Origin: Owenia fusiformis
Taxonomy: Eukaryota
Assembly (NCBI GenBank): GCA_903813345.2
Contig: CAIIXF020000001.1
Span: forward strand, 22,754,001-22,818,000
Reading direction: 5' to 3'
DNA length: 64,000 bases
The notes under the pieces are model-generated. The model saw only the letters and a list, made by a program, of their open reading frames with translations, had not been told where the DNA came from and made no database searches. A program made the position numbers and the translations under genes. This document shows, piece after piece, positions 2,338 through 58,857 of the stretch (positions within the stretch are counted from its first letter, which is position 1; each line of letters begins with the position of its first letter).

Positions 2338-2739
2338 AACAGTCCTTACTAGTTATATTGTCATGCAGCAAAGAAATATGGAAGCATAGATGGGTCAACA
2401 GCAGCCAAATGGAGCAGCCAGTTGCCTTCCCTTTACGCCCTAACAAGTTGCACCGTGATAAATACTGGCATTTGTAGTTTTTCTTTCTGACAATTTAGAG
2501 TTAAGAACATCTATGAGTTCCTGGTAGCTGTTTTCCTGATGAATTACTTGCCTCGAAAGTTCTTCAACAAGGAGTCTCAATGCTTGTCATGAACATTGTT
2601 AGGGTAATTCTTGCCTGTTAATCTTGGATACCCCAGCAAATTGGTTATCTCTACTTTTCAACTGTCTGACATTAGGATGCCGACACAACCAACAAAACTC
2701 ATGAGCATGTACATGTCCCAGAGCCTGTTGATGAATGTA

Positions 2740-9185: not shown

Positions 9186-10008
9186 ACAATGCACTTCCAC
9201 TTACGATGTGCATTATATGCAAATGGATGCACTCATGTGCAAATATGAGATAATCATAACAACTTTATAAAAATCCATAACACTCTTACAGTGTACTTAA
9301 GAATTCCATTTTGTAACAGTGTTGTGTAATATAAGGCTATTTTATAGTACAGAGGGTTAAAGTAGATTTATTTCTAAAGGTAAAGGCATTATAAGCTAGG
9401 TATCTATCACCAATCACATTATCACCTTCTTGACCATAGATCTCTAAAAATGTTTTAAAATATTATTCATTGCTGATTCTAAGTGAATGGTTGCTTTTTA
9501 GTGTTTCTCTTTCTTCTTCAGGAGATTGTTAGTGCACTCGTAATCAACATCATTTTTTTGAAAATCTGAAAATTTTTATTCCAACTTATTTGTTCAAAAG
9601 AAAAAAATGACACTAGTCTTAATCTGCAGTGCAGTCATAATGTTTACTTTATAAAAGAAGCACATAAAAATAGCTGACTACGTAATTTATCAAGTTTTTT
9701 TTAATTTTTTTATTAAAATCAATGTTACATATTTACAGATTGTAGTGGCTATGATCCCCAAGAAGGAGTATTAGGTGCCACATAATGGTATTTACAATGA
9801 TTTCTGTTTAAATGGTGCTGCCATGCATTGATATATACATTGGCAAAAAAGCATTGGCACTACTTTCTGAACCGAATTACTCTTCATCCTTGTCCTACTT
9901 ACACTATTAAGAGCCATTATACCTGACGTTGCTCTAGTCTATAGACATGAATGTTTAATCCACAAACTGAGATTAAATTGGAATACTTGATTGATTTTTT
10001 AATACAGT

Positions 10009-13000
10009 TAGTGCAGTCAGAATGTGGGTTTCGGCGTGCGTTCAGAGGGATTTTATGGGACATAATTTTTCATGTTACTACTATGATTATACATATTTGT
10101 ATGGATTATTAGATCTTAGTTTTTCAGCTTTTAGATTTTGTGGCCATTTTACCCCCCATGGGCTAAAATTTGGACCCCTACTATATAATTGGGCAAGAAC
10201 TCAAAAAATACTCAGTGGAATGTTTCCAAATTACTAAGTTGCATTGGTATAGGCTAATTGAATATATGATAAAAATTTCATGTCACATGGTTAACTGGTT
10301 GCCATGGAAATGGATAAAACATGCCCTTCAGGTGTCAATTTTCAGGCCAATTTTTCAGGACTGACAGAGTCATTTCATGCATATTTTGTCACCAATGTGT
10401 TAGGAAGGGTTAAAATGTCAATAGAAAACTTCTATAATATATAAGCAACAATTGTATGTAAAGATCAGTCCACAAAACCTCAGATTTTGGCCTTGTATTG
10501 GTCCATGACTTATACAGGGGTCTATTTCATAGACTCGAGCTCCCACATTGGATGGATGCTATAACTTTTGAAATAATGGAGATACAGGTCTCATTTTTTC
10601 AGATCTTCATAAATGGTTAGTGTTAAGTATTTTATTTTACTTTGGGAGCTGACATGTGATTGGTTGCCATGGTAACCAGGGTTTTAGGGAAATTCCGACC
10701 CCCACATTGGATGGATGCTATAACTTTTGAAATAAGGGAGATACAGGTCTCATTTCTTCAGATCTTCATAAATGGTTGGTTTTAAGTATTTTAATATACA
10801 TTTGGAGCTTGTATATGATTGGTTGCCATGGTAACCAGGGTTTTAAGGAAATCCTGACCCCGACATTGGATGGATGTTATAACTTTTGAAATAAGGGAGA
10901 TTCATGTCTCATTTTTTCAGATTTTTGACAATGATTGATTTAAAGTATTGATTTAGACTTTGGGAGCTGAAATTGGATTGGTTACCATGGAAATCAGGGT
11001 TTTGTTGAAATTCAGACCTCCACAACTGATGAACACTATAACTCTTAAATACAGCCAGATAAGATAATCTTTTCAGATGTAAGATAATAATAATATGTGT
11101 GTATTGTATTAGCCTTTGGAAGCTAGGATTTATTTGTCTGCCATGGTAACCATGTTTCATTGCCATGGTAACTGCTGTTTTCGTTTTCAGATTCACCTTT
11201 ATTCTAGATAGGTCAATACATGACATAAAATACCAAATTGCTCAAAGTTACCATTTTATTCTTAAATTTTTTTTTTCTATTTTATATGATTTACATGCTC
11301 ATGACTCAATAATACTAGAGATGCAAACATTGTTTGGCTCATAAAATATCAAATACTAGAAAAGTAAACAATACATGTATGTCTGACAATATTGCCTTAT
11401 TCCATACGACTAGTTCTTACAAAAGTTCTGACTCCTAATTTGTTCATTTGAACTCATCATTACTGTTTTCATTTAGCACAATTTCCTCTTAACATCAATT
11501 TCTGTTGGAATGAAGGATTGTTTTGACCATTCTGGAGATAAGGATCCTCAGGGGATATAGTCCATTCATGCAGTATTGGACTTGGCAGAATGGGGTAAGA
11601 CTGGTCCCTGTGGTTTCACTGTATATAAAATTGGCTGGGGTCCAAGGCTGAACCCTCAGATATCAATATGTTCCCATCCAATCTGTCAAATTTGAATGTG
11701 TTCTGATATCAACCAAAATAATGCCCAAAAGCCATACCAAATGCCCAAATATATGACCAGTGCCATACCAAATATCCAGATATGAAAACATGGCCATTCA
11801 AAATTTCTAATGCCTCGAGAAGAAGACATGTCATTGAGGAAAACAACCAAAAACAACCTCACATTAAGGATATACTAGATCAATGCCATACATGTGCAAC
11901 AAGTGAGGGGCAACATATTTTTCACAACCATTCCCAAATCCGACCATTGCTATACTCTCAAGTCATAATTTGGAGAGCATTCTCATACCAGATCCTAAAA
12001 TTTGGGTCCATTGCCATATCAAATGTCAAAAGTAACCCACCTGAGCTGAGGATCCCCTCAAGGTTTATATACAGTGAACTTCTGGGAAACGGGGGGTAAT
12101 GTTTCCACTTCCAAATATAAGTTTTATCATCCATCCTCTTCAAATGTTACAATGAGCAATCATTACAAGATGGAAGAGTTCATCATTTAATTCATTGCAT
12201 TATATTAGCTGCTATGAAAGCAGTCAAGGACCAATCTTGAAAGATGGGAAGAGTAGAAATGTCAACACCTCCATAAGTGAGGGCAGGACTGTTCTGTTTT
12301 GGAGAATATCTTATGTGAAACAGCTCATATTGTTATCTATTGATGTAAGTTACAAATATATTTTTGTTAATCTGCTGTACTTTTACTGGTGAACAAATCA
12401 ACTTTGGATTTTATTGTGTCAGGAATTTCTATATTGATTCCTATTATGAAGAAAATAACCTTAAGAACCTCAACTGATATGAACTCTGTCCCATTAGATG
12501 TCAGAAGCTCAACCCAACCCCTGTAGCTGCAAACCTAGGACCAAGTCCTGTGTGAAGCTATATTAGCCTTCAATGCGTTTACTGGATCAGATTCCTCCAG
12601 TGCAGAAATACAACAAAACAGCAGAAATAGAAAAATAACTGCCACTAATAGATTACGAGATGAGCTGTTTCCCATGAGATACAGAAAAAACAGAACAGTG
12701 CTGCCCTCACTTATGAAGGTGTTGACATTTTCTTTCACATTTGAAGAGGGTAAATTATCCAACCTATGTATGGACACATTCCCACCAGCCTAAACCCAGC
12801 TCTACCATTATGCCCAACACTGCATGAATGAACTGTGAATTCCCTGACGAATCTTTAACACAAGAATGGTCAAAAGAATCCTTCTTTCCAATAGAAATTG
12901 TTGATATTTTTAATTAAGAGGCAATTGTGGAAGATGAAAACGATAATGATGAGTAAAAACAAGTTGGGAGTCTGAATATGTGTGAGAACTAGTAGAATGG

Positions 13001-14143
13001 AATGAGGCTATACTGTCAGACATACAGGATAAATTGCTGAAATAAAGAGCAAAATGATAATTTTGAGCATTTTGGTATAACATGTTGTGAATTGACCATT
13101 CTCAAATGAAGGTAAGACTGAAATAAAAAATTAGGGATACCATGACGACGAAACATGGTTACCATGGCAATCAAGTAAATGCTAAGCTACAAAGTCTAAT
13201 TCAATACACAAATCTAATTAATTTTTAAGATCTGAAATGATGATATCTGTATCTGCTTGAATTCAAACATTAAAGCATTTATCAATTGAGGAGGTCCAAA
13301 TTTCAATAAAACTCTAGTTACCATGGTAACCAATCAAATTTCAGCCCCCAAAGTCTAATTTAATATTTATAATCAATCATTGTCTAAGATCTGAAATAAT
13401 GAGACATGTATCTCCCTTATTTCAAAAGTTATAGCATCCATCCAATGTGGGGGTCGGAATTTCCCTAAAACCCTGGTTACCATGGCAACCAATCACATGT
13501 CAGCTCCCAAAGTAAAATAGAATACTTAAAACTAACCATTTAAGAAGATCTGAAAAAATGAGACCTGTATCTCCATTATTTCAAAAGTTATAGCATCCAT
13601 CCAATGTGGGAGCTCGAGTCTATGAAATAGACCCCTGTATAAGTCATGGACCAATACAAGGCCAAAATCTGAGGTTTTGTGGACTGATCTTTACATACAA
13701 TTGTTGCTTATATATTATAGAAGTTTTCTATTGACATTTTAACCCTTCCTAGCACATTGGTGACAAAATATGCATGAAATGACTCTGTCAGTCCTGAAAA
13801 ATTGGCCTGAAAATTGACACCCGAAGGGCATGTTTTATCCATTTCCATGGCAACCAGTTAACCATGTGACATGAAATTTTTATCATATATTAAATTAGCC
13901 TATACCAATATAACTTAGTAATTTGGAAACATTCCACTGAGTATTTTTTGAGTTCTTGCCCAATTATATAGTAGGGGTCCAAATTTTAGCCCATGGGGGG
14001 TAAAATGGCCACAAAATCTAAAAGCTGAAAAACTAAGATCTAATAATCCATACAAATATGTATAATCATAGTAGTAACATGAAAAATTATGTCCCATAAA
14101 ATCCCTCTGAACGCACGCCGAAACCCACATTCTGACTGCACTA
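10009..14143. mobile_element. 4.1 kb non-coding foldback DNA element, Academ-like
   Basis: AGT|tagtgcagtcagaatgtggg ... cccacattctgactgcacta|AGT. Arms are near-identical for >700 bp and recognisable for ~1.4-1.6 kb, with ~160 bp subterminal tandem units. TAG..CTA termini and a 3 bp TSD fit Academ (inference). Confidence 0.85.
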
Positions 14144-15512
14144 AGTGTATTATTGAACGCCAATTTTGTACATTATCTGAATGTGAAAGACTAGTTCTAT
14201 AATATCTTGTTAGAAGCACAGATAAATTTAATGGCTCAACAGCTTTTTGTTTGCTGAATCTCCCTTTGAGAAAATAAGAAAAGTAATGTTATCAAGCCAA
14301 AGCTGAAACTTAGAAGTGATGACATATTGTTATAGTCTCCAACGTTTTTGTGAACGCCGTTCGGTGGTTGGTGTTTGGCGTCTGTAACAAATGGCAGGTA
14401 GTAACATTTTTGTGTATGCGTGTCCTTCACTCCCTTGTCTGTGTTTTCTACTACAAAATAAAAGCGGATGTCATATTTCGTTACAGTAACACAGTGTCAT
14501 ACATAGAGGTTATTTTATTAGATATTACTTATCTTTTATAAAGGCCCACAGTGTTTGACCATGATCATGCCTTTAATCAAGCAATAACTGGTCAGCCAAT
14601 CAATGTTGTCTACTTTTGTAAAACCTGTAAAAAATCGTAAATGTAGAACGTCCAAGTAAGGACGTAATACATCACAAGTAGAGGTTTAGACTAGATGTTA
14701 CTTGTTATGGTATGTGTATTCATCAAACACATTTTCATGATAATTGTAAATATTTATTATACACTGAAACCTCTCTAAAGTGAACACCATTCTAGACTCG
14801 TCGCATATGATATATTCACTTTGGGGGATTGGGCTTATACGAGATACACGAATACTTACACCCAGTGGATATGATGATTACTTCATGGAGGTTTTGGTGT
14901 ACTTATATTTTACAAGAGATTTATCCATCTAATGTTGCCAAGAGAACAAAGTGTAATATTACAATGTAAAATAAGTAAATTTTTATAATATATGTATCCA
15001 TGATAATGAATTTTGAGAAATATACAATAATAACAAAAATTAGTTTATATTATTGGTTTGTTGATGGTTGAAATGTGACGGCTATCCCATAAATTAATTT
15101 TATCCATTTTTCATTTTGTGAGCGGTGCCATGTTAATTCTTACCTGAAGATACACAAACTACACTCCTTGATAAAAATATAAAATGACCCATTGTAATGA
15201 TCTGATAGATCGGTGGGTATTGATTGGTTATTGATGTGAGTCTATAGAATATAATAATGACAAGCACAAGCTATAGTGTGTATATTTGTATAACTGATGA
15301 ACCAGGATGTCTCCTGGTAAGATGATACATATGGGTACATGTGGTCAATTAGTACAACATATATGAGGTCATTACACCCATTTTAAAATTGACGCTAAAT
15401 TGACGATCTTGTTAACAGTTAATTGATGAAGGCTCCGAGGAAGCATTTTTACATGGGGTAAAATACGGACATACGGAAACATTTATTTTCTGCAAAGTAG
15501 ATGTATTGATAA

Positions 15513-21732: not shown

Positions 21733-22098
21733 AATACCTCCATATATCAAGCGATAAATATGATTATATGTTACCTCTAGGAATAGTGACAAGGTTCGGC
21801 ACTCCTTGCAATGACTGATGAATAGTCCCTAATTGGTTACTTCGCTATGATATCGAGGAATAAGTTCGCCGTTTGACCGAGTCAATGGGGCATTCAATTA
21901 TATGGATAAGATGAGAAAAAATCAAATTCTCGGGATTGGAGAGAACATCAGAGCCTATGAAAAGTGAATCGTTTGCTTTGGACAACAGGGAATCTACGGT
22001 CATGAATTAATTATGAAATATTATGATATTATGGAAAGTGTGCGTTTATTCTAGTATTTTATAAGAATGACGTTAATGTAAATGAGGACCTGTAGGTG

Positions 22099-23143
22099 AT
22101 GGTTAGGGTTATAAACGGAACTTGCGAGGAGTTTATCTCTGGAAGCGGCTATAGTAGAACAATATCGAACATATATGCAACTATAGAGTTTTTAATAATT
22201 ATACTAATATGGTTTGGAAACGGATTAGTTTTAGTTGCCATAGCAACCACGCCAAAGCTTAGAAATAAAACAAATCTTTTGGTTTTCAGTTTATCAATAT
22301 GTGATATGTTTTCGGGGATTGTGTTTACCCAATGCACATTTGTGAGTTTTATATATTCTCGGGGATTCGATGATGTTAAGCCGCTGTGTCTGAGCTGTCT
22401 TGGATTAATGGCCTTCACGCTTACCGTTTCCTTGGAGACACTTTTGGCTATCGCCGTAGAGCGATACATCAAAATTGTACACGCTCTCTCCTACCCACAG
22501 ATTATTACCAAGTTGAGAGTTATCATTGCCGTCATCATGGTTTGGATCAGCAATGTGCTCCTACACTGCAGTACGTTCTTTTGGAACAATTACACTTCGA
22601 CCAAGCGTTGTCATATAATAGACATTCAGACAGTTACATATCTTATCGTTGGCATGTCAATCTTAGTCGTTGCTATGGTTATCATAAATATTCTGTAAGA
22701 TATTCATGATTGCATGGAAACAGAGGAATGAAATCATATCCATGGAGAGAAGTGCGGGGGTCTCGTCCAGTATGGCCAAGGAAAACAAATTAGCAAAAAC
22801 AATGGCTCTCGTGAACGGGCTACTCTACCTCTCATGGACACCCTTTGTAATGTTAACATTTGTGCAATTAGGGATGGACGACGAAACTTTAAACACACAA
22901 TGGATGGGGCACATTTATTATAATTTCACACACGTTCTAGTTGCGAATTCTTTACTTAATCCGCTCATCTATGCAGCGAGAGACAAAGATTTCAAAAATG
23001 CCTTTAAACGACTCCTTCGATTGAAAGCTCACGGGAATGGAGTGACGAACTTAAACTCCAATTCTCAGCCCACTGCATCCTCTGAACGCAATGCTCCAGA
23101 ACTCGTTCCTCCATTTTCCAGTAAAAAAGAAGCTTGGAAATGA
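22099..23143 (+). pseudogene. Single-exon class A (rhodopsin-like) GPCR, copy 1, frameshifted
   Basis: GN (TM1), LSICD (TM2), AIAVERY (TM3), SWTPF (TM6), NSLLNPLIY (TM7). A 5 nt deletion at ~22696 relative to copy 2 (ctgtaagata vs ctgtatactaagata) creates TAA in TM5. Confidence 0.88.
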
Positions 23144-23748
23144 GACACGGAGGATTAGCCAAACAGTGCGTCAAGTGGTAACTAGAGCCGAAAATCTGGA
23201 GATGTTATAGACATTTTATATTAAATTGAAATTGAAATAATGTATGTACAAATATATAATTTTTGTACTCGCAATCGAGATCGAAAATAAATCACTATAG
23301 TCTAGATACAAGCCCTTGTGCCCTTTTCCAACTACTCATCCCAGCATCACTGTGTGAGAAGGTGAGTAGTCAAGTAGAAGGGGGGGGGGGTCACATGGTC
23401 TTGTAGCTAGACTAGAATCACTACACCCTGTCCTGTTTACTTTTTATGGTTCCATTTCTAATTTCATACACATAGTGAATTGATTTGCTGCGTAGGGAGA
23501 GGTCGATCGTGAGTGCAGCTAGTGCACCTGATCTCTTGGGAACCTTTAGTATTACCATACCCAAGCTTCAAAAGGTATCGTTTATATCAATTGTAATGGT
23601 TAATGTGGAGATGCTAATTGAAATTATCTACATTGTGATTATTGTACACTGTTCTATCACTCCTCGATTAATAAAAATAAAATGTAGTACAAATTATATA
23701 ATATCATACTCTCCTTGAAACGGAGGAAATACTATATCTAGTAATCAT

Positions 23749-25526: not shown

Positions 25527-26229
25527 TACATGTATAATTGAAATATAAACATGAACTAGATCTAAATCAAACCAAAATCTTAATTAATCAACACAATTAT
25601 CAAAGGCTATGAATACGCTTACGTTCGTTCCAACACTAAACGTTTGCTTGCAATGTTTAGGATCTCCCGTTCTTATAATAAGCTATACCCAAGATAAACT
25701 AAATGGTCTTAATTAATACATGTATAATTAGTTGAGGTATGATTTCTGTCATGACTAGATTGTCTTGTCTTAATTCGGATATGCAAATTACCACAAATTA
25801 ATCGAGAGCAGAGGTTTCCAAGAAAGATATTGAATTTTTGAAAGGGTTAAGTCTTATTTGGAAAAGGTGTAATTGTCATTCGGAAAAGTTTTAATCAAAG
25901 TTTATTTTGGAGAATCTTACGTTTGATTACTTAGGGTTCCATTTAATAATCTAACCCATCTCAACAAACTAAATTGATAATTGACAAACTCTTGATAATT
26001 TCGCCATGTTCGAGTCAGTGTGGCATTCAATCATACCATGGAGGTTCTGATTTGTAAGCAAATCAATTTCACCGGATCATAGGGTAAATCAAAGGCTTTC
26101 AGAAGTAAATCGTACGTTTTGGACTATCAGAATTCTGCGTCATGAATTAATTATGAAATCGATATTATGGAAAGCGTTTATTATAGTATTAGATAAAATG
26201 ACATTAACGTGGATGAGGATCTGTAGGTG

Positions 26230-28187
26230 ATGGTAAGGCTAAACGGAACTAATGAAGAGTTCATCTCAGGAAGTGGTTTTAACAGAACAACATCGAGCTT
26301 ATATGCAACTATAGAGTTTTTAATGGCCATACTAATATGGTTTGGAAACGGATTAGTTTTAGTTGCCATAGCAACCACGCCAAAACTAAGAAATAAAACA
26401 AATCTTTTGGTTTTCAGTTTATCAATATGTGATATGTTTTCGGGGATTGTGTTTACCCAATGCGCATTTGTGAGCTTTATATATTCTCGGGGATTCGATG
26501 ATGTTGAGCCGCTGTGTCTGAGCTGTCTTGGATTAATGGCCTTCACGCTTACCGTTTCCTTGGAGACACTTTTGGCTATCGCCGTAGAGCGATACATCAA
26601 AATTGTACACGCTCTCTCCTACCCACAGATTATTACCAAGTTTAGAGTTATCATTGCCGTCATCATGATTTGGATCAGCAATGTGCTCCTACACTGCAGT
26701 TACACGTCGCACGAAACTGGGGACAATTAGAGTAACATTATGGCGTCAAAATGCCAAAACAATACAATGGGCAGTATAGGGCGCAATCAGCATTATAACG
26801 TCAAAAACGACAAGCGTTACATTTTGTCAAGTTTAGTCAACCTAAAAATAAGATGCTTTATTCTTATTCAATCCTGGTAAAATTCACAGAGCAACAAGAT
26901 CTCGAGGACAATATTTCTAAAATGTTTTTGATTTTTGAAAAACGGTCAGGAAATCCACTCGGGGCGTTAGTAAAAATTGATGTGTATTGGATTTGTGGTA
27001 AAAAATCGATGTGTTACATTTTTTCAAGTCTCTAAAAGCAACTCTTATTCTCTTATTATTTGAAAAATAAAGAAATCTGTTATTGTTTTGTAAATTTCGC
27101 CATGACAATATTGTGCAGTAACATTTTTTTTGAAATCAGACCTAAATTAGAAGGTTAAATAAAGGTAAACTTATTGCTTGTCTCCTTCGCCTTCAAAACC
27201 TTACACAATTTTGAAAATCTTAAAAGCGTTCATATAAGACGATTTGAACTGTAGCCGCTAGGCAATTGTGACGTCATAAAAGCACATGTTTCAATGAATA
27301 AAATGTGAAATTTTAGTAAAATCCTGATCAGTATTTCAAAAGTTATCCCGATTTCAACGAACCATGTAAGCGTGAAATGTTACGCCTTACAGCGTATTTG
27401 ACGATGTCGGAGTACATTTAACTTCAAAAATATGGTAGATCCCATCACACTTTTCGAGGAAAAATAATTTCAGTCAAATGCGAATAAAAAATACTTCAAA
27501 ATGATATATAATGCACATAGTTAGCTTTTTAAATAAGCCAGATATTAACGCTTAAAGCTGAGATTAGCCCGTATTTCTCGAATTGTCCCCAGGTCCGTGC
27601 ACGTCATAAGTACGTTCTTTTGGAACAATTACACTTCGACCAAGCGTTGTCATATAATAGACATTCAGACAGTTACATATCTTATCGTTGCCATGTCAAT
27701 CTTAGTCGTTGCTATGGTAATCATAAATGTACTGTATACTAAGATATTCACGATTGCATGGAAACAGAGGAATGAAATCATATCCATGGAGAAAAGTGCG
27801 GGGGTCTCGTCCAGTATGGCCAAGGAAAACAAATTAGCAAAAACAATGGCTCTCGTGAACGGGCTACTCTATCTCTCATGGACACCCTTTGTAATGTTAA
27901 CGTTTGTACAATTAGGGATGGACGACGAAACGTTAAACACACAATGGATGGGGCACATTTATTATAATTTCACACACGTTCTAGTTGCGAATTCTTTACT
28001 TAATCCGCTCATCTATGCAGCGAGAGACAAAGATTTTAAGAATGCCTTTAAACGACTCCTTCGATTGAAAGCTCACGGTAATGTGGTGACGAACTTAAAC
28101 TCCAATTCTCAGCCCACTGCATCCTCCGAACGCAATGCTTCAGAACTCGTTCCTCCATTTTCCAATAAAATAGAAGCTTGGAAATGA
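26230..28187 (+). pseudogene. Class A GPCR, copy 2, interrupted by a transposon after TM4
   Basis: Near-identical to copy 1. The frame is open if 26701-27611 is removed (LHCS|TFFWNN). N-terminal NGT/NRT sequons. Confidence 0.88.
26701..27608. mobile_element. 908 bp non-autonomous DNA element with imperfect TIRs and an AGT TSD
   Basis: AGT|tacacgtcgcacgaaactggggacaatt ... aattgtccccaggtccgtgcacgtcata|AGT. Empty site ctgcAGTacg in GPCR copy 1 (~22570). Confidence 0.88.
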
Positions 28188-29329
28188 GACAATGAGCGTT
28201 TGGAGGATCAGCCAAATAGTGCGTCAAGTGGTAACTATAGCCGAAAATCTGGAGATGTTGTAGACATATATAATTCAAATTGAAATAATGTATGTACAAA
28301 GATATAATTTTGGTACTTGCAATCGAGATAGAAAATAAATCACTGAAGTCTAGATACAAGCCCTTCTGCCCCTTTCCCACTACTCATCCCAGCATCACTG
28401 TGAGAAGGTGAGTAGTCAAGTAGAAGGGGGGGGGGGGTCACAGGGTCTTGTAGCTAGACTAGAATCACTACACCCTGTCCTGTTTACTTTTTATGGTTTC
28501 ATATCTAGTTTCATACACACAGTGAATTGATTTGCTGCGTAGGGAGAGGCATCTGATCTCTTGGGAACCATTAGTATTAACATACCCACTTCAAAAAGTA
28601 TCGTTTATATCAATTGTAATAGTTTTGTGGAAATGCTAATGGAAATCATCTATATTGTGATTATTGTACACTTCATTGGAATATTTTCACATGTTAGTCA
28701 ATATCCTAGATGCGAGTAGAAATAATCTTGATTTACGTCATTAAAGATTCACAATTCAGTCAAACTGATGTCATATTTGGAATCTACATGTAAAATTACA
28801 TCTAGAAATGTGGTTTTGCAAAGAGTTTATCAACTATAAAAATTGTTTTTTCTTTGAAAATGTGACTTCTAGGTCGGGGAGATTCCCCATAGACCCCATG
28901 TTGTAAAACCACAAAAAGTGAAATATCTTTTCTTGTGTTGGGCAAATAATATTTTCTTTTCCTGGACATATTTTAATTTGCAACTATCAAATACATAAAG
29001 GTAATATGAAAAGTGAACCACTAAAACTGATGAATATTCAAGTTTTAAGGAATTATGTGATGCATGCACACGAGTTACACATGAAATACACCTTTTACGA
29101 GGAATTCATAATCCTATGTACAGATGTAACATACGTCTATATGACACAAGAAGCTTCTTTAAGGACACTCTACATTACAAGAATGTAGTATTAGATATTT
29201 TCATTTTTTGAAATACGTTTTGTTATTCTGTTCTATCACTCCTCGATTAATAGAAATAAAATGTAGTACAAATTATATAATATCATACTCTCCTTGAAAC
29301 GGAGGAAATACTACAGTATATCTAGTAAT

Positions 29330-37782: not shown

Positions 37783-38817
37783 ATGAGTCTTAAGGTTGTT
37801 ATCTTAGGAGCTGGTGGCCTAGTAGGGACGCGTTTATGTCTAAAGATCGTTCAGCTACAGGAGATGCATATTAACCCTACGGAGAGTCTACCATTGAAGA
37901 AAATCGTAATGTTCGATGCGATGGAGTTGAAAACAATCCCCGATAGCATCAAGGGTGACGCTAGAGTCTCAGTAATGATTGGTGACTTGTGCGACAAGAC
38001 GATCATGGCTAAAGCGGTAGAGCCGGACGGTTGTACGAGAGTGACTGTAATACACCTCGCTGCTGTCCTCAGTGGTTACGCTGAAGAGAACTTCGACCTT
38101 GGTATGAAGGTGAACTTGCATGGCACGCTGAACGTTATGGAGTGCATGAGAGGTTTGGTTACGGAGCTGGGTCAACCTCAGATTTATGTCTACGTAAGCA
38201 CAGATTACGTTTGCTGTTTCAACGACTATAATAAGAACAACCCAGTGAACGAAGAATCATTCCGTCTTTCACCCGTGTCATATGGTATCCAGAAGTCTTG
38301 TATAGAACTGTTGATGTGTGATTATACCCGGAAGGGGTTCTTAGATGGTCGAGTAGCTCGTCTTTCAGCCGTGATCGGACGTCCAGGATGGTCGAACTCA
38401 ATCTCTTACCCATATACAGGTATTTTCACACAGCCACTCGAAGGGAAGGATTACGTGGTTCCTCTACCAATGGACATCCCCTTCCCATGTTCTAGTCTTA
38501 ATAACAACATCGATTGCCTGTTGTTTACCGCTAGCAACCTAGATGGAACCAAACTTGGGCACAACCGTATTATTCAGCTTCCAGCAAAAAGTTGGACACT
38601 AAATGATATATGGGCAGCTACCAAAGAAGTTGCATCTGAGGAAGGTGTCCAACTTGGTAAGATTACCAACCAATCAAATGGAGGTGATACCACAATTAAG
38701 GAGATCAATGTGTGTCCATATGTAGACTGTGGAAAAGCCGAACGGCTTGGTTATCCCATGGAAGTCGATCTAAAGGACATTATAAGAGACTACATCAATG
38801 TATATATAAAGAAATAG
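37783..38817 (+). CDS. Intronless NAD-dependent epimerase/dehydratase (extended SDR), D-erythronate dehydrogenase DenD-like
   Basis: 344 aa from ATG 37783. GAGGLVG Rossmann motif, HLAAVLSGYAEENFDLGMKVNLHGT, catalytic SYGIQK, ELLMCDYTRKGFLDGR, RPG. Confidence 0.88.
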   Translation: MSLKVVILGAGGLVGTRLCLKIVQLQEMHINPTESLPLKKIVMFDAMELKTIPDSIKGDARVSVMIGDLCDKTIMAKAVEPDGCTRVTVIHLAAVLSGYAEENFDLGMKVNLHGTLNVMECMRGLVTELGQPQIYVYVSTDYVCCFNDYNKNNPVNEESFRLSPVSYGIQKSCIELLMCDYTRKGFLDGRVARLSAVIGRPGWSNSISYPYTGIFTQPLEGKDYVVPLPMDIPFPCSSLNNNIDCLLFTASNLDGTKLGHNRIIQLPAKSWTLNDIWAATKEVASEEGVQLGKITNQSNGGDTTIKEINVCPYVDCGKAERLGYPMEVDLKDIIRDYINVYIKK

Positions 38818-47609: not shown

Positions 47610-49817
47610 GGTAATATGATTTTTGATTTTGTCTGGGCATACATCAATTTTGGTTTTGAAATTTGCATAATGTTTTTTTTTTAATCAATCATTCAATTTA
47701 TGGTTTTATGCATATATGTAAACATTTAAAGCACAAAGAGATGGCGTCACAATGATATAATGCATTAATTTTTTCTATGGGTCTGGTTGCCAAATTTGTT
47801 GTGTGAGGGGTGGATACACTTTTGCGCAGTTGCAGTTATTTTCAAAGACAATCAGTTCTTTGGTTTTTCAATAATGCCCAGAGCACGTTCAGATTGCAGA
47901 TGTCATATTAATTGTTTTGTTGGTTACTCTGTTGATAAGATATTTGGATATGTTAGGTCAGCACTTTTTTGATACAATGGTAATATATATGTAAAGGTCA
48001 ATGAAATTCAGTCATTTGAAGTTATTGTAGTTTTTTATTGCTTTACAGATTTATGTCTATTAATGTTGTTTTAGAAATTAATCAATCATGACTCTTTCAA
48101 AGTTCTACATATCGCTTTGGTTTGGTGAATTGCCAATGAAACATGTCAGAGATATTATACTTTATTGGACCAGAAATAGCCCGCTTTTTACATGTTCATG
48201 GGCGTGTTTGACCATAAATGCTCCTATTTTCTTTTGGATATTTGAAACATTGAGATCTATTGCAAGCTATTCGGAAAGGTCTACTCGTTATAATGATAAC
48301 GTTATAATGATATTTTGCTAGTTGTTACCGAAGTATTATAGCTAGTATTTGCAAGATTTAATAATAAGTTGAATAATCCAATCAAGCAAGGGCTTGTTGC
48401 TAGACACAAATATTTCCAGACAAGTGTGAATAACAGTTTTGGTATTTCTACACTAAAGCTCAAAATGCAGCAAACAGCTTGGAATGCAGTAGTTTGAAGT
48501 GGGTGTGAAAACTTGAGATTGTTAATGTTCTTCTCTGCATAATGGGAAAACAGATAGTTGAGAGAGTTATTTATTACTTGTTTTCTTATTTTTAGTCTTT
48601 TAATAGTGCTCGTTTCTATCATTTGAGCTTACAGCAAGAGATTATTGCCTATACTTTGGCATACTTGAAGACTGACTTATATTTAGTTCTGTTGCAGCCT
48701 GGATGGTTAGCTATTCGTTAAAGGTTAGCTATGTTGGCATTTCTCAGATATCTTTGGAGCTATAACTTATCTTTATTTTGGAGATACACATGTATTTCTT
48801 TGATTAATTTTGATCAGTGTCTTATACATTTTTAATATCTAAATTACTTTGAATTACACATGTTGTTGAATTGCAATGCATTTGATTATTACTTTTCTTG
48901 GATGTCAGGGGATGGATTCAAAAGTTCTTGATCAAATGGCATCAATATTTGCAAAATAAAGCCAGGCAATGTATAACTAGTGTTCCATGAATAAGAGTGT
49001 AGATCTCTATATTATTTTCATATGAAATGAAAATTGTGCATATAATTTTATTTGTAATTCAGTCATTTTAAGTAATTTGTTTTAATTGCTTTACAGATTT
49101 ATACTTAGAAATGAATCAATTTGAAGGCTTTCAAAGAAAAGTTTTCTCTTCATAAGGAAATATTTTGTTAAGTTGTTGTAGAAGTATTAGTATATGCGAA
49201 ACTGAATCTTTGAATATTGAATTTGAAAATGCAGAGTCAATGCGCGAATTAGAATCTGTGAATGACAATGAAGTAACTGATGTTGATGCGTCAATATACA
49301 TTTATGAGTCCGTGACTTTAGAATATGACATTAAATTGAAAAATGATATTGAACAGTCAAATGAGTTGACAATTGATAGAGTCAATAAATTGTATGTCAC
49401 TGCACAGTGAAACTGTGGGTATTGAATCTTTCTTTGATGAGTGTACTTTATGCTCTTATGACAGTGAACTTGATAATGATGAGTATGATAAAATGTTTGA
49501 AGATTACTGCTTTGATGATTTAATTAGTGATGATGCAGATGATGAATATGTCATGTGCAATGATAATTCAATTCTCCCTTTCGCGATTCGCTCTTTGAAT
49601 CAGAACGTTCGCAAATATGCACTGAAAAAGCACTCAAAAAGGACAAAATTTGATTGGTTATATTTTCTCACTATGCATTTCGCGTAGCTATTTGCGTGAC
49701 CCGAAAGTTCTAATTCAAACTAATTACGCAATTTTGTTTTTACACCCGCACGCTAAATAAAACAATGACAACATCGAAAGTATTCTTCTTTGTCATTGCT
49801 TTAATAGTCTGTATACC

Positions 49818-52800
49818 GATTTTACTACGCAAACCTTAACTACTTACACTAATATTGCCACTATGTGCTAACATCCACCATTGAATCTATCTATGGCCAA
49901 CTTCCCGGGAATTTCTTGAGCATATTACACTGTGCACCCCCGCACAAATGCCCGGATATTCCTCAATTATTCCGCCATTTTCCTTCTGTAAAGACGGAAA
50001 TTTTAGAATCGCAATAAATTTACAAATAACTTGTGACTATGGACACGGAACTGGGAAGTTAGTTGTTCTACAGGTTCATCAGTTACATATGAAAGTAAGA
50101 GGACGAGGAAAATAGATCATATGGAACTATAAGACAAGTTTGCAAGGTTTTTTCTTTGGGTTGTTAGTCCACAAAGAAAACATCTGATCCAAAAATGTCG
50201 AAGATCTTACCTCGTTCGTTTTATCTTTGCTTGGTCCATATAGGGTCTTCAGTCCCGACATGAGATTATAGTAAGCATATGGAAAAGGTCTCTAGTGTCA
50301 ATTGACCTTTTTTCCAGACAATTTGTCATATTAAATGACAATTTCTCGGGTCATTAGACCATCAGAAGACATCATGTACAGAGAACGAAATAGTACAGGT
50401 TCTTCTATGTGTTATGTTACATGTGAGAGGTTTTCAATCCAGATAAGAAAGTAAGGAAGCCCGAAGAAGGTAGACACTGTGTTTATGCCTTGCAGTACCT
50501 TGCCTTACACTGAGGTGTTTCTTTTGGTTGTCAGTCCATAAGAAAACATTATCTGTTCAAGTTTACACAGCTCTCAATTTTTCGTCTCTGTATTCATCAC
50601 ATAAACGTGTTCAGTTCCAGATGAATATGAGAAATTTGAAAAATATCTATATCTGAAGATGGCTTCAGACAGTCAGAGGTGTTTTTGGTTGTCAGTCCAC
50701 AATGAAAACACATACGTGTTCAGGAGAACGCAGACGAAATGGCTTCTTTACTGCTCATGTGTTTTTTGGTTGTAAGTCCACAATGAAAACACATACGTGT
50801 TCATAAGAAGTTATCACCTCTTTTCTTCATGCACAGTTTATAAAAGGACTCCAGTCCCGATATGAATTATGTAATGGTACGTTCACACCAACGGCGCTTT
50901 GATGGCGCTTTAAAGCGGCTTGTAAAGCGGCACCAAAGCGTAACAAAGCTTAATTAAAGCGCCGGGGTCGTAATAGGTCGTAGAAAAGCTCGGGAGTAAA
51001 GCGGGATATTCGGCAAGAGCGCTAAAAAATTTAAACTGTTTAAGCGTTCGCACCAACGGCGCTTTGATGGCGCTTTAAAGCGGATTGTAAAGCGGCACCA
51101 AAGCGTAACAAAGCTTGATTAAAGCGTCGGGATCGTAATAGGTCGTAGAAAAGTTCGGAGTAAAGCGGGATATTCGGCAAGAGCGCCAAAAAAGGTTAAA
51201 CTGTTTAAAAATTTTGGGCGCTCTGTTACGAATTGATTGAAGCGCCGAGAGCGTATCAAAGCTTAACAAACCGTAACAAAGCTCAACAAAGCTTGACTCA
51301 AAGCGTAGGAAAGCTTAACACAGCTTGGTTCAAAGCGGGGACCCCAGTCTATTCACGGTCTGTTACCACTTGACACGCTTCGTTAAGATGTCTCAAGATT
51401 TGCTACGATCTGGCATGAAGATCTGACACGAGGTCAGACGCTTTCATCAATATCTGACACTCTTTGTTACACTTTCCCGAGGGACTCTCAAGCTTTCCAA
51501 CGAATTGAGACGCTTTAATCAAGGATTGCAACGCTTTGCTAGGCTTTGTTACGCTTGAAAGTTTTCACACGCTATATCACGCCGTGCGACAAACGTCATG
51601 TCTTCTTCAGATAGGTCATGCTCTGGTCCATCTGGAATTTCTGGATCTCGTTGTTCTGCCATCGTGTTCTCGAGTCAAAGATGCAATGGTTTTATGGATC
51701 TACTGCATCTTTATATAGTCATTGGATCAAAAGCGGCATGGAATCGGCGATCTCGACATTTTCCAATGCGTGACAGAGCTTAACAGAGCGTAACAATGCA
51801 CAACAGAGTTTTGCAATCGTATCAGAGCCTGATTTAAAGCGTCATAATCGCATCAAAGCGTAATAATGCTTATCAAAGCTTTTCAAAGCGTGATTTCAAG
51901 CGTAACAAAGCCTGATCAAAGCGTGATCAAAGCGTGAGGAACCTTTTAGAGCTATGTTAAGCTTTCCTACGCTTTGGATCAAGTTTTTCTGAGCTTTGTT
52001 ACGGTTTGTTAAGCTTTGATACGCTCTCGGCGCTTAATCGATTCGTAACAGAGCGCCCAAAACTTTTTAAGAGTTTAAAATTTTTTGGCGCTCTTGCCGA
52101 ATATCCCGTTTTACTCTGAGCTTTTCTACGACCTATTACGACCCCGACGCTTTAATCAAACTTTGTTACGCTTTGGTGCCGCTTTACAAGCCGCTTTAAA
52201 GCGCCATCAAAGCGCCGTTGGTATGAAGAAAAATGACAAAAATGACGGCGCTTTGCTCGCCGATTTAAAGCGTGGCATTCGCCGTTGGTGTGAACGTACC
52301 TTAATAAACATGGAGAAATAACTACACCAGTAAATTTGTCTTCCAGGATTTGACATGTGTCGAGCATGGACTGCATGATCCTAGGATGAAGAAGATGTTT
52401 CTTCATCTTACAGTAGCGTGATCACAATAAGATGTTCAGATGAAGACACTTGGTTCACATACATTTAAATGTATTTAGAAAATAACACCGTATGTTGTAA
52501 AATCTGGTGTAGTATTCATGTAATGTTGCATACATAGAACACGTATGCTGACCACAGCTGTATAATTGGTTTATTTAGTCCATTCAGTTTTATACTAGTT
52601 CTGCGCAGCAGGATAGGTTTGTCACTTATCCATTTGGTTCAGTTATTTTTGGACTGAGTTGTTTGTCTACTGTTCAGAAAGAGGATAGGCTAAAGATTAA
52701 CAAGAGTAACTGTAAGATTAACAGTAGGTCTACTGTGAAGTCGTCATCTTCTTCACAGAAAAGACCAATATAGCATTTTTAGCCTACTCATCTTCCAAGT

Positions 52801-55800
52801 AGATGTAAAATCTTTTCGAATCAGAGACCTATAAGTTATGGTCTCTGATTGAGCGTTTCTGTTTTCTCCAAGTAATTGTACATGTTGCTATTAATATATG
52901 CTGAAGAAAACGATTCATGGATGCTCACAATCATCCTGTTATTGGTTGATTCAGTCTCTTCAACAAAGAAGTAGAAGGTGACTTAGATTGTTTTTGAGTC
53001 TCTAGACTAGGCCTATCCTTCTAGCCATATTAGCCAACAACTGAACAACACAAGTACTTATTCATATAAGAAGTGTTGTAAGCGTTGACAAATGACAATG
53101 TCATGAACTTGTCATTTCTGACTGAAATCTTTTTTTCTCAGGAATCATTTCTGAATACTCCTATTTATACTCTATTCCTGGAATATTAACATTCAGAATT
53201 GAGTTGGCGGAAGTACCTTCGACATAGGTTACTTTCTCCAGATGCTTCTCATAAAGCATTCAACTCAGAGTTAATTGTTTGAGGAATTAAGATTACAGTC
53301 GAGGTTTTTTGAAAACTTAAACATTTGGCGGTTTTCAGTTTACCAGATAAAGTAAGGTTATGTCTAAAACATCACCTCCGTGAAGGTTTTGTTTCCTTTA
53401 TTTTACTTGGCCTTGGCAGCTTTTGAAGTCAAAAGTTGATTTTTGAAGTCTAAGATTACTTTTCAGATCTCTTGTAAGTCAGTTCAAGAGACTGTAAATC
53501 AAATTCTGTGCTTTCCCCTACAACCTTGGGTGTTATTCCAAAGGTTTTATTTTGTGATGAGGGGAAGTAGTTATACTTACTTATAACAAGTCCCTATATC
53601 TGTATTCCAGACCATGGGCCTGTTTGCTACCACATCACACACAGAATGAATATTTGTTTATTTTGACCTTGTTCAGGTTGCTCAGAGTATAGTCAAAGTG
53701 ACTTTTAAACACGGTGTTTTACTCAGTGTTTTACTGAGCCAGTCTCAGTCGTGACAGTATCATCTTCAACAGGTTCACAGTCGTGCCGTGCTTCTGTGTA
53801 AACTTTTGTGTCTTAAATAGCCACACCTTCACTTTAAGTCATGGTATCATCAGTGTTCAGTTCAATCACTATTTGAGAGATCTTACATGTTGTTTAGAGG
53901 TTTATGTTTTTTCACCATGGAATCATTGTTACCATGTTTCCTTGGTGGTAGAACCTCAACACATCATTTAGTGGTACTGAAGTACTATATACTCGAGAGC
54001 TAGTGTACTCTTTGTTATAGACATGGTTTCGTTTGTCTTGACATGAGCTCTTCCAAACAAGAGATTCAGACTTACCTTTTTACGCATTGGTCAATTAATA
54101 TTAACAGTGGCAATTTTTTCACACATATGTCTTGTCGTGATCAAATTTTGAACAAGTTATTTTTGTAACAGTCTCATGATTTTAAGAATCACAGACATCC
54201 TCTGCTGACTGTTATACATATGATCTTTAACGGAAATCTCAGTTTTCCGTGTGGTTTTGGAGATATTTCTATACGAATTATCTTCAACTCCATCTATACT
54301 TTATCAAATAGTTTCATTTTTGAGACAGTACATTTTTTAAGATGTTGTTCTGAGTAGAACACTGAGTTAAGGAATCGTTCTGCCCTGAGACTAGTAATGT
54401 CACTACCCCCTTAATAGGACAAATATACATCTAAGGTTTATGATGTCAAGATTCCAAGTAATTAACAAGGCATTTTGGTGCCCTGTCACAGGAATGTTAT
54501 TCTCAGGAACCACATAGTCATCGGTTCGATCCCTATTAGCTACTGTAGTTTAGTGCTGTTTGCCTATTCTATTTGGCAATTGAATAAGGCTTTTAACGTT
54601 GCTTTATTTTCCTCTGTACCATTCCCATTTGAGGCAGATGGTGGTCAACCTCTTGAGGTGTTTAACAGAGGATTTCAATGCGAGAATAATTCTCGTTATA
54701 TTTATACATGTTATATGGGAACGGTTCTTGAACACTTACTAGGTAGATGAAAGTTGCCCAAGAACATTTTTGTGTTCAAAGATGCAAATCATAACGTAGT
54801 TGTCATATCCACGTTGCTTGACAGCTAGACTTCCTTCAAAATCAGGGTTCATTTTCAACAAGAGAATGTGAAACACCTGTAGATTTTAAGGATGAGAAGC
54901 GTGATGGGGTTTTTAACACCTATATTGCAAGAAAGCAATATTGTGACATCTGACACTACAGTTCAATTGATGTGTAATACTATTAACTATTAGACATCAA
55001 GACGTCTCACTTGAATTGTTTGTTGTTTCTGATTCAAAGATTATTGATGTTTAGAACATCATTGTCTTATTAATGTGAGTTTGCATTCTAATGAGTTTAT
55101 TTACTCATATTTTAGTGATAGTATACATGTTTGTTTATGACTAAACAGCAATATTAGAAGATACATGAAACGTATATCTTCCCCAGCAACTTTGTGGATA
55201 AATTGCAGGTGTTTCTTACCAAGAGACGCAGAGTTTTTATCACACTATATATACGATAAGACTAGAATGCTACTGAATTACTTGGTAGTCGTCTTATTTA
55301 CCTGTAATTGTTGTAAATCGAACTCTCTAATGATATTTCTATCATGATATCGTACAAGATTATGCTTTACTAGTCTAGTAAATTTTCTGATGTCAGCATA
55401 TATCAGAGGAGGGTTTTCAGAACCAGTTCCTAAATGATCTTGTCCTGATAACTTCTTCTAGAGTCGAATGATTCTTTAAGGTTTTGAGTTAGTGTTGTGA
55501 ATCAGTTGAACTTATTCACTCTTAACCATTATAATCCCTTTCTTGGGTTTGTACCAAGATCTAGGATTGTATTCAGCAGGTATCATTTAGACATGTTTGG
55601 ATACATGACTTTCTAATTAACCGATTTTTTCAGAAAGTGTTCGGTAATATGCAAGTTTTATTGTTGAATTGTAAACAACCAAGCATACTCGACTAATAAG
55701 GAGGGTGTACATGGGTTCTTCAATGATTGAACATGTGATCCTAATGGCAATGAGTAAATGATGAATCTCTACGTAGTTTATCATTCAGACACAGCTTAGC

Positions 55801-57025
55801 CTTTAAGGGTTACAATGCTTTGCAGAAGCACTTATACCAGATGTTTAATATTTAAAAATGTAATTTGGGATTTCGGAGTTATCACAATCCCAAGAATATT
55901 TAAACAACTGGTGTTCAAAGTTCGAATATCATAAAGAGTCCAACATATGGTAACCGATGTAGTACTTTGTCTCACCTTTACTCAAAAGAGAGAACGAAAA
56001 GTTTGCATTGATTTGAAGAACCAGATACATTTAAGGAACTTCAATAAAATTCCTTTAGATCTTTGGATCAAGCAATTATTAGCTGTTATCTATACATGTA
56101 CAAGGTATACAGAAGTATACACATGTAGCTGTTAAAGAAGGGTCGAAAACGTTATGTCAAGACCAGTAACTACTTCTTCAATCTTTGTTTCTAGAAGTCG
56201 AGTGGAAGATATGTTTAAAGCAGGCACAATGGGCAGCTTTATTTACTTCCAAGTCATGTATGTAAGTCTAGGACTATGCAAGAAGATATTCTGACATTTT
56301 TCTTAACTTTATGGCCAATCAGAATGTCAGAATTTGTACTGTGGTATAAGTTCGTTGTTGACCTTTGGTGGTTGAATTACCCCGCCATAGATAGACGTCC
56401 GTTTTTTATCATAGTGGCCAATTGAGTCATATATGAATTAATACTCAGTAGTTTTTAGCATAGTGAATCTGAATAATTAGTTTTGTTAAGTGTTTAACAC
56501 AGTTTAAACATTTCACCCCAGAACTTGTATTTGGTTACTAAGTTCCTTAGTCCCGAAGGCTTTAGGATGTAAAGTTGGGTTACCTAAAGTTGTAGGGTTG
56601 ATCAATTTGTAGTTTGTTGCAAATTTATTCTATTCCCGTGGTCTTTCTGCTGTTTAACCCACCGCCTACTTGGCTGGGATTCAGCACATAGTGGCAATAT
56701 TAGTGTAAGTAGTTAAGGTTTGCGTAGTAAAATCTTAAAATTTAAAGTAATTTTAGTTTTTATTAGTAAACCATACTTACCTAATATTGCCACTACAAAT
56801 ATGTCCCTCCCTCCTCCTCCGCTTACAGCAGAATGTTCATAATTGTTATAGCGGAATAATTGAGGAATATCCGGGCATTTGTGCGGGGGTGCACAGTGTA
56901 ATATGCTCAAGAAATTCCCGGGAAGTTGGCCATAGATAGATTCAATGGTGGATGTTAGCACATAGTGGCAATATTAGGTAAGCATGGTTTACTAATAAAA
57001 ACTAAAATTACTTTAAATTTTAAGA
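49818..57025 (+). mobile_element. DIRS1-type tyrosine-recombinase retrotransposon with decayed coding region
   Basis: Left ITR 49818-49976, ICR 56683-56793, right ITR 56851-57025. Relics: RT-like LRDL..FTMESL (~53870-53930); YR-like LWIKQLLAVIY (~56060) and RPVTTSSIFVSRSRVEDMFKAGT (~56160). Confidence 0.88.
50875..52301. mobile_element. PIF/Harbinger-like MITE nested in the DIRS
   Basis: TAA|tggtacgttcacaccaacggcg ... cgccgttggtgtgaacgtacct|TAA. Long internal inverted arms; ~165 bp tandem duplication in the left arm. Confidence 0.85.
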
Positions 57026-58857
57026 GTTTAATCAATAAAACATTGTACAATGAACAACAAAATTCGGAAACGAGTACTATAGATTGGCTTTCGGACCACT
57101 GAACAGAGTGACCTAGATAATAGCGACGCTTCTTCTTTGGTCTACTGCTCAGTTATTTGTTGGTTTTCAACGTAACTCTATGATGTAATTTGATGATGAA
57201 TACTTTTTTTCCGTTGTTGCATCGATGATGCAGTTTGTAGTGCGGTAAGATTGGCATGAAAGTATTGAAAGTCGAATGGAATTGTTTTTTCCAATATGGC
57301 GAATAGTCAACTGATCATGTGACCTTCTCTTCCGGAATATTTTCTCACTTTTCAATCATCGTTTTCACCACGCTATGAATCAATACAATGAAAAAAATAG
57401 CTGTTATATTAAGATTAATAAGAGATCAATCGTTTCTAATAATTTTTTCTGTACCCCCGTACGGGAATATGAACGAATATATCGTTTGAAAAATAGGTGT
57501 TAAAATCCCCATGTTAAACCTATGAGGGAAAACAAGGAAGTATAAATTTGTTCCTCCGCGAACTGCATCATGGGAAATATTTTGACCTTATAAGGAAAGA
57601 TTTTCGCGTCTCCTCTTTTGAAGAGGGAACAGCGATTTCGAGAATTAGTGACAATTCCGATGATGATGAATATGTCACTTGTAATGATACAAATGATGAC
57701 GAGACTTGTAGTATCCATTTCGTAAGAAAGGCGGATGGAGCTAGGCTGGCAACCTCTCTTGACCTTGATGTGACAAACGAGTTCCATGTCAAGGACAATG
57801 CTACAGAGTCAAATGATATATTGTATAACAAGTGTGATCTGCAGAGTGATTCAGATTCCAATATGATATACGTTTCAGCTAAAGGTTGAATACTCAAAAC
57901 AAACTAGTGTTATTTATTACATATTTTTACAGTCTTTCAACAGTGCTAAATGATGTTGGCTAGCTATTTGTTAAAGGTTAAAAATGTTGGAAAATTATCT
58001 TTACATGGATAAAGAACATATGGTTCATTTTTAAACAACTATAACTTATTCTTATTTTTGACCTGGACTAAAGTCTAAAAGCCTACATGTAGTCAAGGCT
58101 TTACCAGAAACTCTCATAGCTGAAATTGGAAGATATTTTGGAATTCCTGTCTAGTTATTTATTCGATAATATATGACTTTTTTTGGCAAAACATTTTAGA
58201 GGAATCATTTTAATTGGAGCACCTAGCTGACGAATTAGCGGGTCCACATTACAGAATTTTTCTAAAATGATATATTTGGGTCTAGAGCTTTATAATATTT
58301 ATGGGTGTGTGAAATATTTGTTGAGGAATGAACTTGAATGCTTGATGATGGTGGGGGAGAAAGTAAACAGATAAGGGAGAACGAAACAATTTTAATTATA
58401 TAGCCAGGTAAAGTCCGGAATGGTAGGGGCTGGCTGACCCTTGGGGCCATGATGATCTGGCCGGAAGTAAGTCCACGACGTCATGTGCTACCCTTTACCT
58501 GGGCTAGTATGTAAGACCATGGCAATGAATGAGATATGATATTAGTGCGTATATGATATAAGGTGCGTAGTGCACTCATTTGTGGGGCTCTAGACTTGAC
58601 TATTTAAAATTCAATGACTTTCTTGACTAAACTGATCACTTGGTCAAGGGATCATTTGACATCCTTTGAAGTAAAAATGTTATGTTTATCTGAGAGTAGG
58701 AACAATATTTTCTTTTAAACCTTTCTTTATCTTGGCTACAAGTATTGTTTTATAACACTTTGGCTAGAAGGCGGCCATTTTGAAAAGTGAGTAACCATTT
58801 TTGAATGGTATAATGGTGAACTTTGAATTTTGATTTTGTAAAATTGCAGTCATGTTA

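Follow-up and report, generated by a model that had tools for sequence, protein, structure and literature searches.

DIRS1-like retrotransposons are annotated by a characteristic set of parts, namely inverted terminal repeats (ITRs) with divergent and conserved portions, a right extension, as well as an internal complementary region (ICR) whose two halves share the 3 nt of a circle junction (Piednoel et al. 2011, PMC3266345). We describe an element with such termini and a gene-free interior in a 64,000-nt stretch of the Owenia fusiformis genome (assembly GCA_903813345.2, contig CAIIXF020000001.1, positions 22,754,001 to 22,818,000 of the forward strand). This whole stretch is called the window, and all coordinates are its own. 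We interpret the element, at 49818-57025, as a young, low-copy, non-autonomous DIRS1-type tyrosine-recombinase retrotransposon that is most likely mobilised in trans, and assign this reading a probability of about 0.82.

According to the Cappello model, each replication cycle restores the left ITR by way of the right one, and uses the ICR to rebuild the two outer ends (summarised in PMC7192593). In Dictyostelium DIRS-1, the ICR is essential and the reverse transcriptase (RT) acts in trans (PMC7192593). DIRS-1 supplies the mechanism considered here, comprising end rebuilding, single-stranded cDNA and an RT working in trans, but is itself autonomous. TOC1 of Chlamydomonas reinhardtii is termed a non-autonomous DIRS retrotransposon, and its copy number varies among strains (PMC9940879). 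Like TOC1, the window element is non-autonomous and belongs to the DIRS order, and it may vary in copy number; TOC1 differs in its green-alga host and in not having the combination of ITRs and ICR. In repeat-library names, an N denotes a non-autonomous family. The name of zebrafish DIRS-N1 (PMC5400779), known here by name only, suggests a curated, non-autonomous DIRS family in an animal.

A further parallel is found outside the DIRS order. Large retrotransposon derivatives (LARDs) of plants, such as Sukkula, possess a large (>4 kb) non-coding interior between intact termini, are assumed to be mobilised in trans, and are reported to encode a conserved RNA secondary structure (PMC7215508, PMC9033089). 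The window element likewise has ~5.3 kb of non-coding interior between intact termini, here with a folding bias alone and not structure conservation. Whereas LARDs are long terminal repeat (LTR) elements with an integrase and target-site duplications (TSDs), it carries DIRS ends and a recombinase-type junction. Full-text literature, including the accessible parts of PMC9210276, PMC8969392, PMC8498967, PMC12477816, PMC5718144, PMC4350176 and bioRxiv 10.64898/2026.02.25.703748, yielded no description of a gene-free element of the ITR/ICR type, most subscription journals, Repbase Reports and supplements lying outside this search. The screen reported in PMC3266345 demanded RT, methyltransferase (MT) and tyrosine recombinase (YR) domains, and was therefore blind to such an element.

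Termini and insertion junction

The element measures 5,778 bp after removal of a secondarily inserted miniature inverted-repeat transposable element (MITE) and one copy of its TSD, which falls within the DIRS1 range of 3974-6283 bp given in the text of PMC3266345, and its terminal and ICR parts fit the size ranges for DIRS1-like elements in Table 3 of that article. All parts are described on the plus strand. The outer left terminus (49818-49848) forms the divergent 31 bp of the left ITR, starts with the junction trinucleotide GAT, is an exact complement of the left ICR, and is only partly like the right terminus. It is followed by the conserved left ITR of 127 bp (49849-49975), which contains a 14-nt core. 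The conserved right ITR, also 127 bp (56851-56977), is its exact reverse complement with 0 mismatches in 127, as the initial annotation had stated. The outer right terminus (56978-57025) combines the divergent ITR part with the right extension and closes with a final GA, followed by the target's G. This division into conserved and divergent ITR parts is that of DIRS1-like elements.

The ICR lies near the 3' end and complements both outer ends. Its left half (56683-56734, 52 nt) pairs with the left end (49818-49869) with 0 mismatches in 52, and its right half (56733-56795, 63 nt) forms a long stem with the right end (56963-57025), with 1 mismatch in 63. The halves overlap at a trinucleotide, ATC at 56732-56734, which represents the circle junction. 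On the opposite strand, the aligned ICR spells the joined element ends as TTTTAA-GAT-TTTACT, in agreement with the earlier proposal that it reads as a junction of the two ends. Over the 242 bases of the three repeat pairs combined, there is a single mismatch. The longest perfect inverted repeat is 127 nt, compared to 12-18 nt in 30 shuffles, and the 14-nt core, common to the two ITRs and the two ICR halves, occurs four times where 0.07 occurrences are expected. As in the DIRS1-like elements of PMC3266345, the window element thus unites the same ITR and ICR parts, a shared core of at least 10 nt, the absence of a TSD and a length in range; it differs in having no gag, RT/RNase H/MT or YR, and in beginning with GAT and ending with GAG where NTT is usual. 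Lacking these coding features, it is not an autonomous member of the group.

[quoted passage not shown] A PAT/Ngaro-type (TOC1-like) assignment was ruled out for the window element, as its terminal repeats are inverted and split direct repeats are absent. The LARD class of the LTR order was also rejected, the termini being inverted rather than direct LTRs and a TSD being absent.

The insertion site could be compared with empty targets. Sampled words of 52302-57025 are present to 55-84% in twenty runs, which stem from six studies of a single organism. Of the 24 runs listed, four were aligned to 48301-58500, namely three sets of DNA contigs and one of RNA reads. At the left junction, the host letters cc meet the element's GAT, and at the right junction the element's GA meets the host's g. 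In all four aligned runs, position 49817 is connected to 57024 in empty copies of the surrounding host repeat, and precisely two letters can be assigned to either side. The alignment confirms GA at both host junctions, and the empty targets, which are paralogues, share only GA across the junction, so that the claim of integration without a TSD holds at this junction-like trinucleotide insertion. Exactly this joint, without duplication, would result if a GAT junction had crossed over with a GAG target. An empty-target variant with AGA at the insertion site also occurs. Among the 15 joints listed, there is no read across a circle junction, which the ICR itself mimics.

The host repeat itself is a very high-copy, unclassified sequence of ~0.85 kb. 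Its left part (49570-49817, left boundary approximate) has a contig depth of 1e4-1e5, compared to a few hundred in unique flanks, with loose ends of mixed sequence at 49569-49570, and its right part (57026-57636, right boundary approximate) reaches a depth of ~1e5, with loose ends at 57608 and 57636. Since the host-repeat depth is ~100 times that of the interior, almost all host-repeat copies must be empty. Relative to an empty paralogue in one record of run X11, the window's host repeat differs at 19/180 and 14/149 letters, i.e. by ~10%. Many host-repeat paralogues diverge from the window copy beyond 57608, and the repeat is present in RNA reads on both strands.

Coding content, copies and age of the interior

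The interior comprises a 5' part (49976-50871, plus strand), which carries four copies of a 28-nt repeat (at 50155, 50522, 50683 and 50764), and a main part (52302-56682, plus strand), which is CpG-poor, T-rich on the plus strand, hairpin-rich and covered by RNA. The earlier statement that no open reading frame (ORF) reaches 100 aa stands: no stretch between stops in 49818-57025 exceeds 94 aa, and 300 shuffles of the interior likewise average 94 for their longest frame. Stops occur at shuffle level, with densities of 0.056-0.072 in the six frames compared to 0.066-0.077 in the shuffle. Period-3 power is 1.8 times the background and is not treated as evidence. The dinucleotide profile (CpG 0.46, GpC 0.69, CpA 1.39, ApG 1.25) is nearer to several coding DIRS loci than to the flanks.

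For homology searches, 119 DIRS-like loci were retrieved from metagenome contigs with an RT motif; in the two loci checked, the ORFs proved to be RT and integrase-family proteins. Six of the metagenome loci (L008, L012, L025, L053, L058 and L065) are apparently complete coding DIRS1-like elements with ITRs and an ICR. Profiles were built from 82 pol and 41 YR sequences. With these profiles, hmmsearch --max found nothing in the six frames. Among the 166 weak tblastn matches to 300 ORFs of the 119 loci, 25 fall inside the element, none better than E 0.02. A 49-sequence DNA profile of coding loci gave no nhmmer match in the window (E 10) or in the interior (E 1000), while the control gave 141 matches in its own loci. 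No Pfam family matched the element's own sequence, the MITE aside, in 15 frames read through stops; the 5' interior had no Pfam family in three plus-strand frames and no significant match to 26 gag-region ORFs. Rfam returned 0 matches at E 0.1, and phmmer with one 1000-residue frame (53421-56420, one of six) against 1.84 billion representatives returned a single repetitive bacterial-type protein with no back-alignment. There were also no matches between an ITR 24-mer and metagenome contigs, between the DIRS RT motif and viral contigs, or between the termini of the 119 loci and those of the window element.

Frameshift-aware alignment to the pol and YR profiles gave 15.6-18.7 bits for the interior, compared to shuffle means of 15.8-18.7; these Forward scores are compressed by a long-deletion path and are relied on only beside controls. 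When three held-out coding loci were degraded in silico with 0.5 substitutions per site and 4% indels, pol still scored 24-66 bits, with 8 of 9 above 28; it became marginal at 0.7 substitutions per site and was lost at 1.0. The controls hence vanish only beyond ~0.5-0.7 substitutions per site plus 4-5% indels. The interior accordingly either lies at a great distance from a coding ancestor or has no kinship with one.

The initial annotation had named faint RT and YR relics in what it took for a decayed pol/YR region. We tested five regions for relics, placed by the layout of coding DIRS loci. The RT, RNase H, MT and wider YR regions are at chance. PFGL-like and YxDD-like words at 53504-53700 on the plus strand, seen by eye, are without statistical support; the RT core in 53200-54700 stays at chance level (p 0.28-0.86), the words lie ~250 nt outside the range of coding loci, and their mutual spacing is ~50 nt too wide. 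A candidate YR C-terminus at 56160-56261 (plus strand) is ungapped, has R and Y at the profile's catalytic positions and is located where the YR ends in coding elements. Its score of 14.8 bits is reached in 29 of 1500 shuffles and in 1 of 166 other windows (p ~0.02, uncorrected), which is marginal, as this is one of five regions tested and the spot was first noticed by eye. The match may hint at a relic of a DIRS recombinase, and nothing more. The RT relic is therefore not confirmed, and apart from this tail the homology is undetectable. The initial annotation had named a lack of RT/YR similarity among the outcomes that would refute it. We take the near-complete lack of such similarity as casting doubt on the origin of the interior, not on the movement of the element.

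These results bear directly on a variant of our reading, in which DIRS ends have captured unrelated DNA and the interior never encoded gag, pol or YR. It involves the same movement, overlaps with our reading, and differs only in where the interior came from. It agrees with the lack of significant matches to pol, YR and gag-region proteins and to the 49-locus DNA profile, with the empty Pfam (outside the MITE) and Rfam searches, and with the misplaced, too widely spaced RT-like words. The full DIRS-like length, the ungapped YR-tail match at its expected position and the dinucleotide profile point the other way, and we regard capture as rather unlikely.

Near-identical copies of the interior are found in three DNA runs. 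In 15 interior contig pieces, 52/7230 letters (0.72%) differ from the window, compared to 53/1830 (2.9%) in five pieces of the unique flanks; these pieces are among the longest 21 of ~22,900, so both figures are biased low. With this reservation, the copies share a non-coding interior that is younger than its surroundings, as expected for a non-autonomous derivative. In runs X12 and X14, interior depth bins of 656-3196 exceed those of the unique flanks (209-790) by ~2-4x, and run X11 gives 9-31 in the interior and 27-44 in the flanks; contig depth is not copy number, and these ratios are compatible with a few, polymorphic copies. One X11 contig (loose end 56751) carries a diverged right end with another flank, and in two contigs the ICR is followed by other sequence; older relatives, such as that behind a further loose end at 56798, therefore exist. 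Of the 13 interior differences listed, at least 9 recur in every contig of the three DNA runs. Such private differences of the window copy would suit a very recent insertion.

The same differences indicate that some window letters are private or wrong, and could be held to favour an assembly error, or a coding element masked by another genetic code, introns or editing. Independent runs agree at ~99%, profile searches tolerant of stops and frameshifts find nothing, host ORFs in the same window are intact, and no GT..AG joint lies inside the interior among the 15 joints listed (142 further). An artefact or hidden genes of this kind we find scarcely credible.

The host repeat had to predate the insertion, so its ~10% divergence limits the time available for decay in place. 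Loss of homology in the interior needs several times more, from which it follows that the interior was already non-coding on arrival. As the ends are rebuilt in each cycle, what their perfection dates is the last cycle rather than the interior. The alternative is an old autonomous DIRS whose genes decayed on the spot, while gene conversion acting locally on the inverted repeats maintained identical ends. It would agree with the single locus in view, the full-size DIRS1 length and the marginal YR tail at its expected place. It would require three separate repeat pairs to be converted to 241/242 identity; moreover, the host repeat is only ~10% from its empty paralogue while the interior has moved beyond detection, and the interior is less variable between samples than the unique flanks. 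We therefore consider decay in place very improbable, and return to it with the folding data.

Copies may alternatively have arisen by segmental duplication or carriage inside the host repeat, independently of a DIRS cycle. The element does sit within a very high-copy repeat, and a second flank was not observed for any near-identical copy. By passive copying, the ends would not have been restored over a non-coding interior, so that at least one recent ICR-templated cycle is still required, and the hundredfold excess of host-repeat depth leaves almost all host copies empty. This route appears improbable.

Folding bias, transcripts and neighbouring features

Local folding was scored as z against dinucleotide shuffles. 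In 120-nt windows, the interior has a mean z of -1.46 (43 windows), compared to -0.16 in the flanks (91 windows, p 6e-8) and -0.52 in coding DIRS (80 windows, p 2e-4). In 150-nt windows, the interior scores -1.34 and -1.31 on the two strands and the flanks -0.23; with DNA parameters, these values become -1.70 and -1.54, and -0.21. The bias is thus equal on both strands, and stronger without G-U pairs or with DNA parameters, which would fit selection on a DIRS-specific single-stranded cDNA. Perfect hairpins with arms of at least 7 number 25 in the interior and 9.7 in shuffles, a contrast not to be over-read, as four flank segments contain 15-17. Coding DIRS windows themselves carry a mild folding bias. 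In 150-nt windows, the interior differs from coding DIRS by less than two standard errors, and the MITE (-1.5, 9 windows) and the host repeat (-1.2, 6 windows) are biased to a similar extent.

The mean z is -0.87 in coding DIRS and +0.24 after simulated decay (50 windows each). Neutral decay, as simulated, abolishes the folding bias; the interior is thus not accounted for by passive decay, a further point against decay in place. The earlier description of a simply dead interior holds in that it is non-coding, and fails in that the sequence is more hairpin-rich than neutral decay produces. Either selection on single-stranded structure or a palindrome-making mutation process may underlie the hairpin bias.

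RNA evidence comes from one raw-read run, X22, of which ~6% was read. All 15 interior bins are covered at ~2-13-fold, and unique flank bins at 0-2.3, with a strand bias of 79 versus 23 in summed depth. In DIRS-1, the right ITR acts as an inward promoter. The dominant orientation in X22 could derive from such a promoter, or from copies inside host transcripts. T>C differences outnumber A>G in the RNA (71 versus 41 in X22, 48301-58500) and are balanced in the DNA runs (p 0.08 versus DNA runs). This excess, the sites of which were not located and which is not used as evidence, may reflect A-to-I editing of minus-strand transcripts of inverted-repeat elements.

The secondary insertion at 50875-52301 is a MITE-like, non-coding, high-copy DNA transposon with a 21-bp perfect inner terminal inverted repeat and a TAA (or TAAT) target duplication at 50872-50874 and 52302-52304, from which we take it to be PIF/Harbinger-like. 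Its depth is 2e5-4e5 in runs X12 and X14. The insertion is real, as a MITE-less joint from 50871 to 52302 occurs in all four runs. Most of the interior depth belongs to the MITE-less form (574, 982 and 10.1), and the MITE is therefore a later addition to the window copy or a subset. Internally, it consists of nested inverted arms of ~270 bp, a 165-bp duplication and subrepeats of 10-11 nt, and many internally deleted forms are found in the runs. Pfam searches of its frames, read through stops, gave two weak matches below cutoff.

A 45-bp, Asp-rich, coding-like motif flanks the host repeat on both sides with 79% identity (49522-49565 and 57643-57689; also 48704-48737 and 57957-57990), and adjoins an acidic frame of 123 codons (57518-57889) that matches no Pfam or NCBIfam family; together they are possibly an old tandem duplication or a broken gene. 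Further away, inverted repeats of ~1 kb (10000-10996 and 13156-14152, 92%) with internal tandem units enclose ~2 kb and probably constitute a foldback-type DNA transposon. Two duplicated rhodopsin-type G protein-coupled receptor genes, 87-91% alike, lie at 21860-23650, where the gene is split over two frames near 22690, and at 25995-28672, where it is interrupted by ~0.9 kb. An intronless ORF of 344 codons at 37783-38817 (plus strand) encodes an NAD-dependent epimerase/dehydrogenase, with bacterial D-erythronate dehydrogenase as best NCBIfam match (188 bits, cutoff 325), and could, to go by its sequence, be a bacterial-type gene in an animal genome.

Proposed replication cycle and implications

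In the proposed cycle, the element would be transcribed from its ITRs, consistent with the interior RNA observed, and the RT of a helper DIRS would make single-stranded cDNA. Following the published model, the right ITR would then serve to restore the left one, and the ICR to restore the two outer ends, resetting the three repeat pairs to identity at every cycle. The element ends would be joined at GAT, the form that the ICR spells, and a helper YR would recombine this junction with a GAG target by a crossover within GA and without duplication, as the junction and the empty target suggest. The interior was non-coding before the window copy inserted. Its size and the marginal YR tail point to a full-length DIRS as its probable ancestor, separated from it by many rounds of copying free of coding constraint, in the course of which local hairpins may have been kept or gained.

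The earlier proposal of a trans-mobilised, non-autonomous DIRS1-type element is thus strengthened by the precise junction compared to empty paralogues, by near-identical non-coding copies in three DNA runs, and by a host repeat that is ~10% diverged. Several observations weigh against it, besides the low-biased divergence figures and the limits of contig depth given above. No helper DIRS with matching ends was identified, a genome-wide search not being part of the analysis, and the loose ends listed (995 further) include no second site at which a near-identical copy has flanks of its own. The pol/YR scores of the whole interior are at background, and its descent from DIRS genes stays conjectural. 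If the library is of the common stranded kind, the dominant RNA orientation runs antisense to the element. In Dictyostelium, a truncated DIRS-1 was reverse-transcribed in trans, but the full cycle was not observed (PMC7192593).

We tentatively suggest, as a possibility short of an even chance, that the element represents a long-lived lineage of full-length, gene-free DIRS parasites, in which, in the course of many trans-mobilised cycles, the coding interior has been replaced by sequence selected for folding of the single-stranded RNA or cDNA and for near-autonomous length. Such a satellite-like replicon would be the DIRS counterpart of LARDs, and, if it exists, domain-based surveys would have overlooked a whole class of gene-free DIRS. 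The surprise is limited, as non-autonomous retrotransposons are common and the DIRS order already includes TOC1 and a family named DIRS-N1. The window element would nevertheless provide a naturally occurring example of the ITR/ICR-type DIRS cycle being completed in trans, where the Dictyostelium helper assay reached only cDNA (PMC7192593). Free of coding constraint, it would isolate the cis needs of DIRS replication, i.e. ends, ICR, and perhaps length and folding. It also suggests that surveys demanding RT, MT and YR domains may undercount young DIRS-derived DNA in animals.

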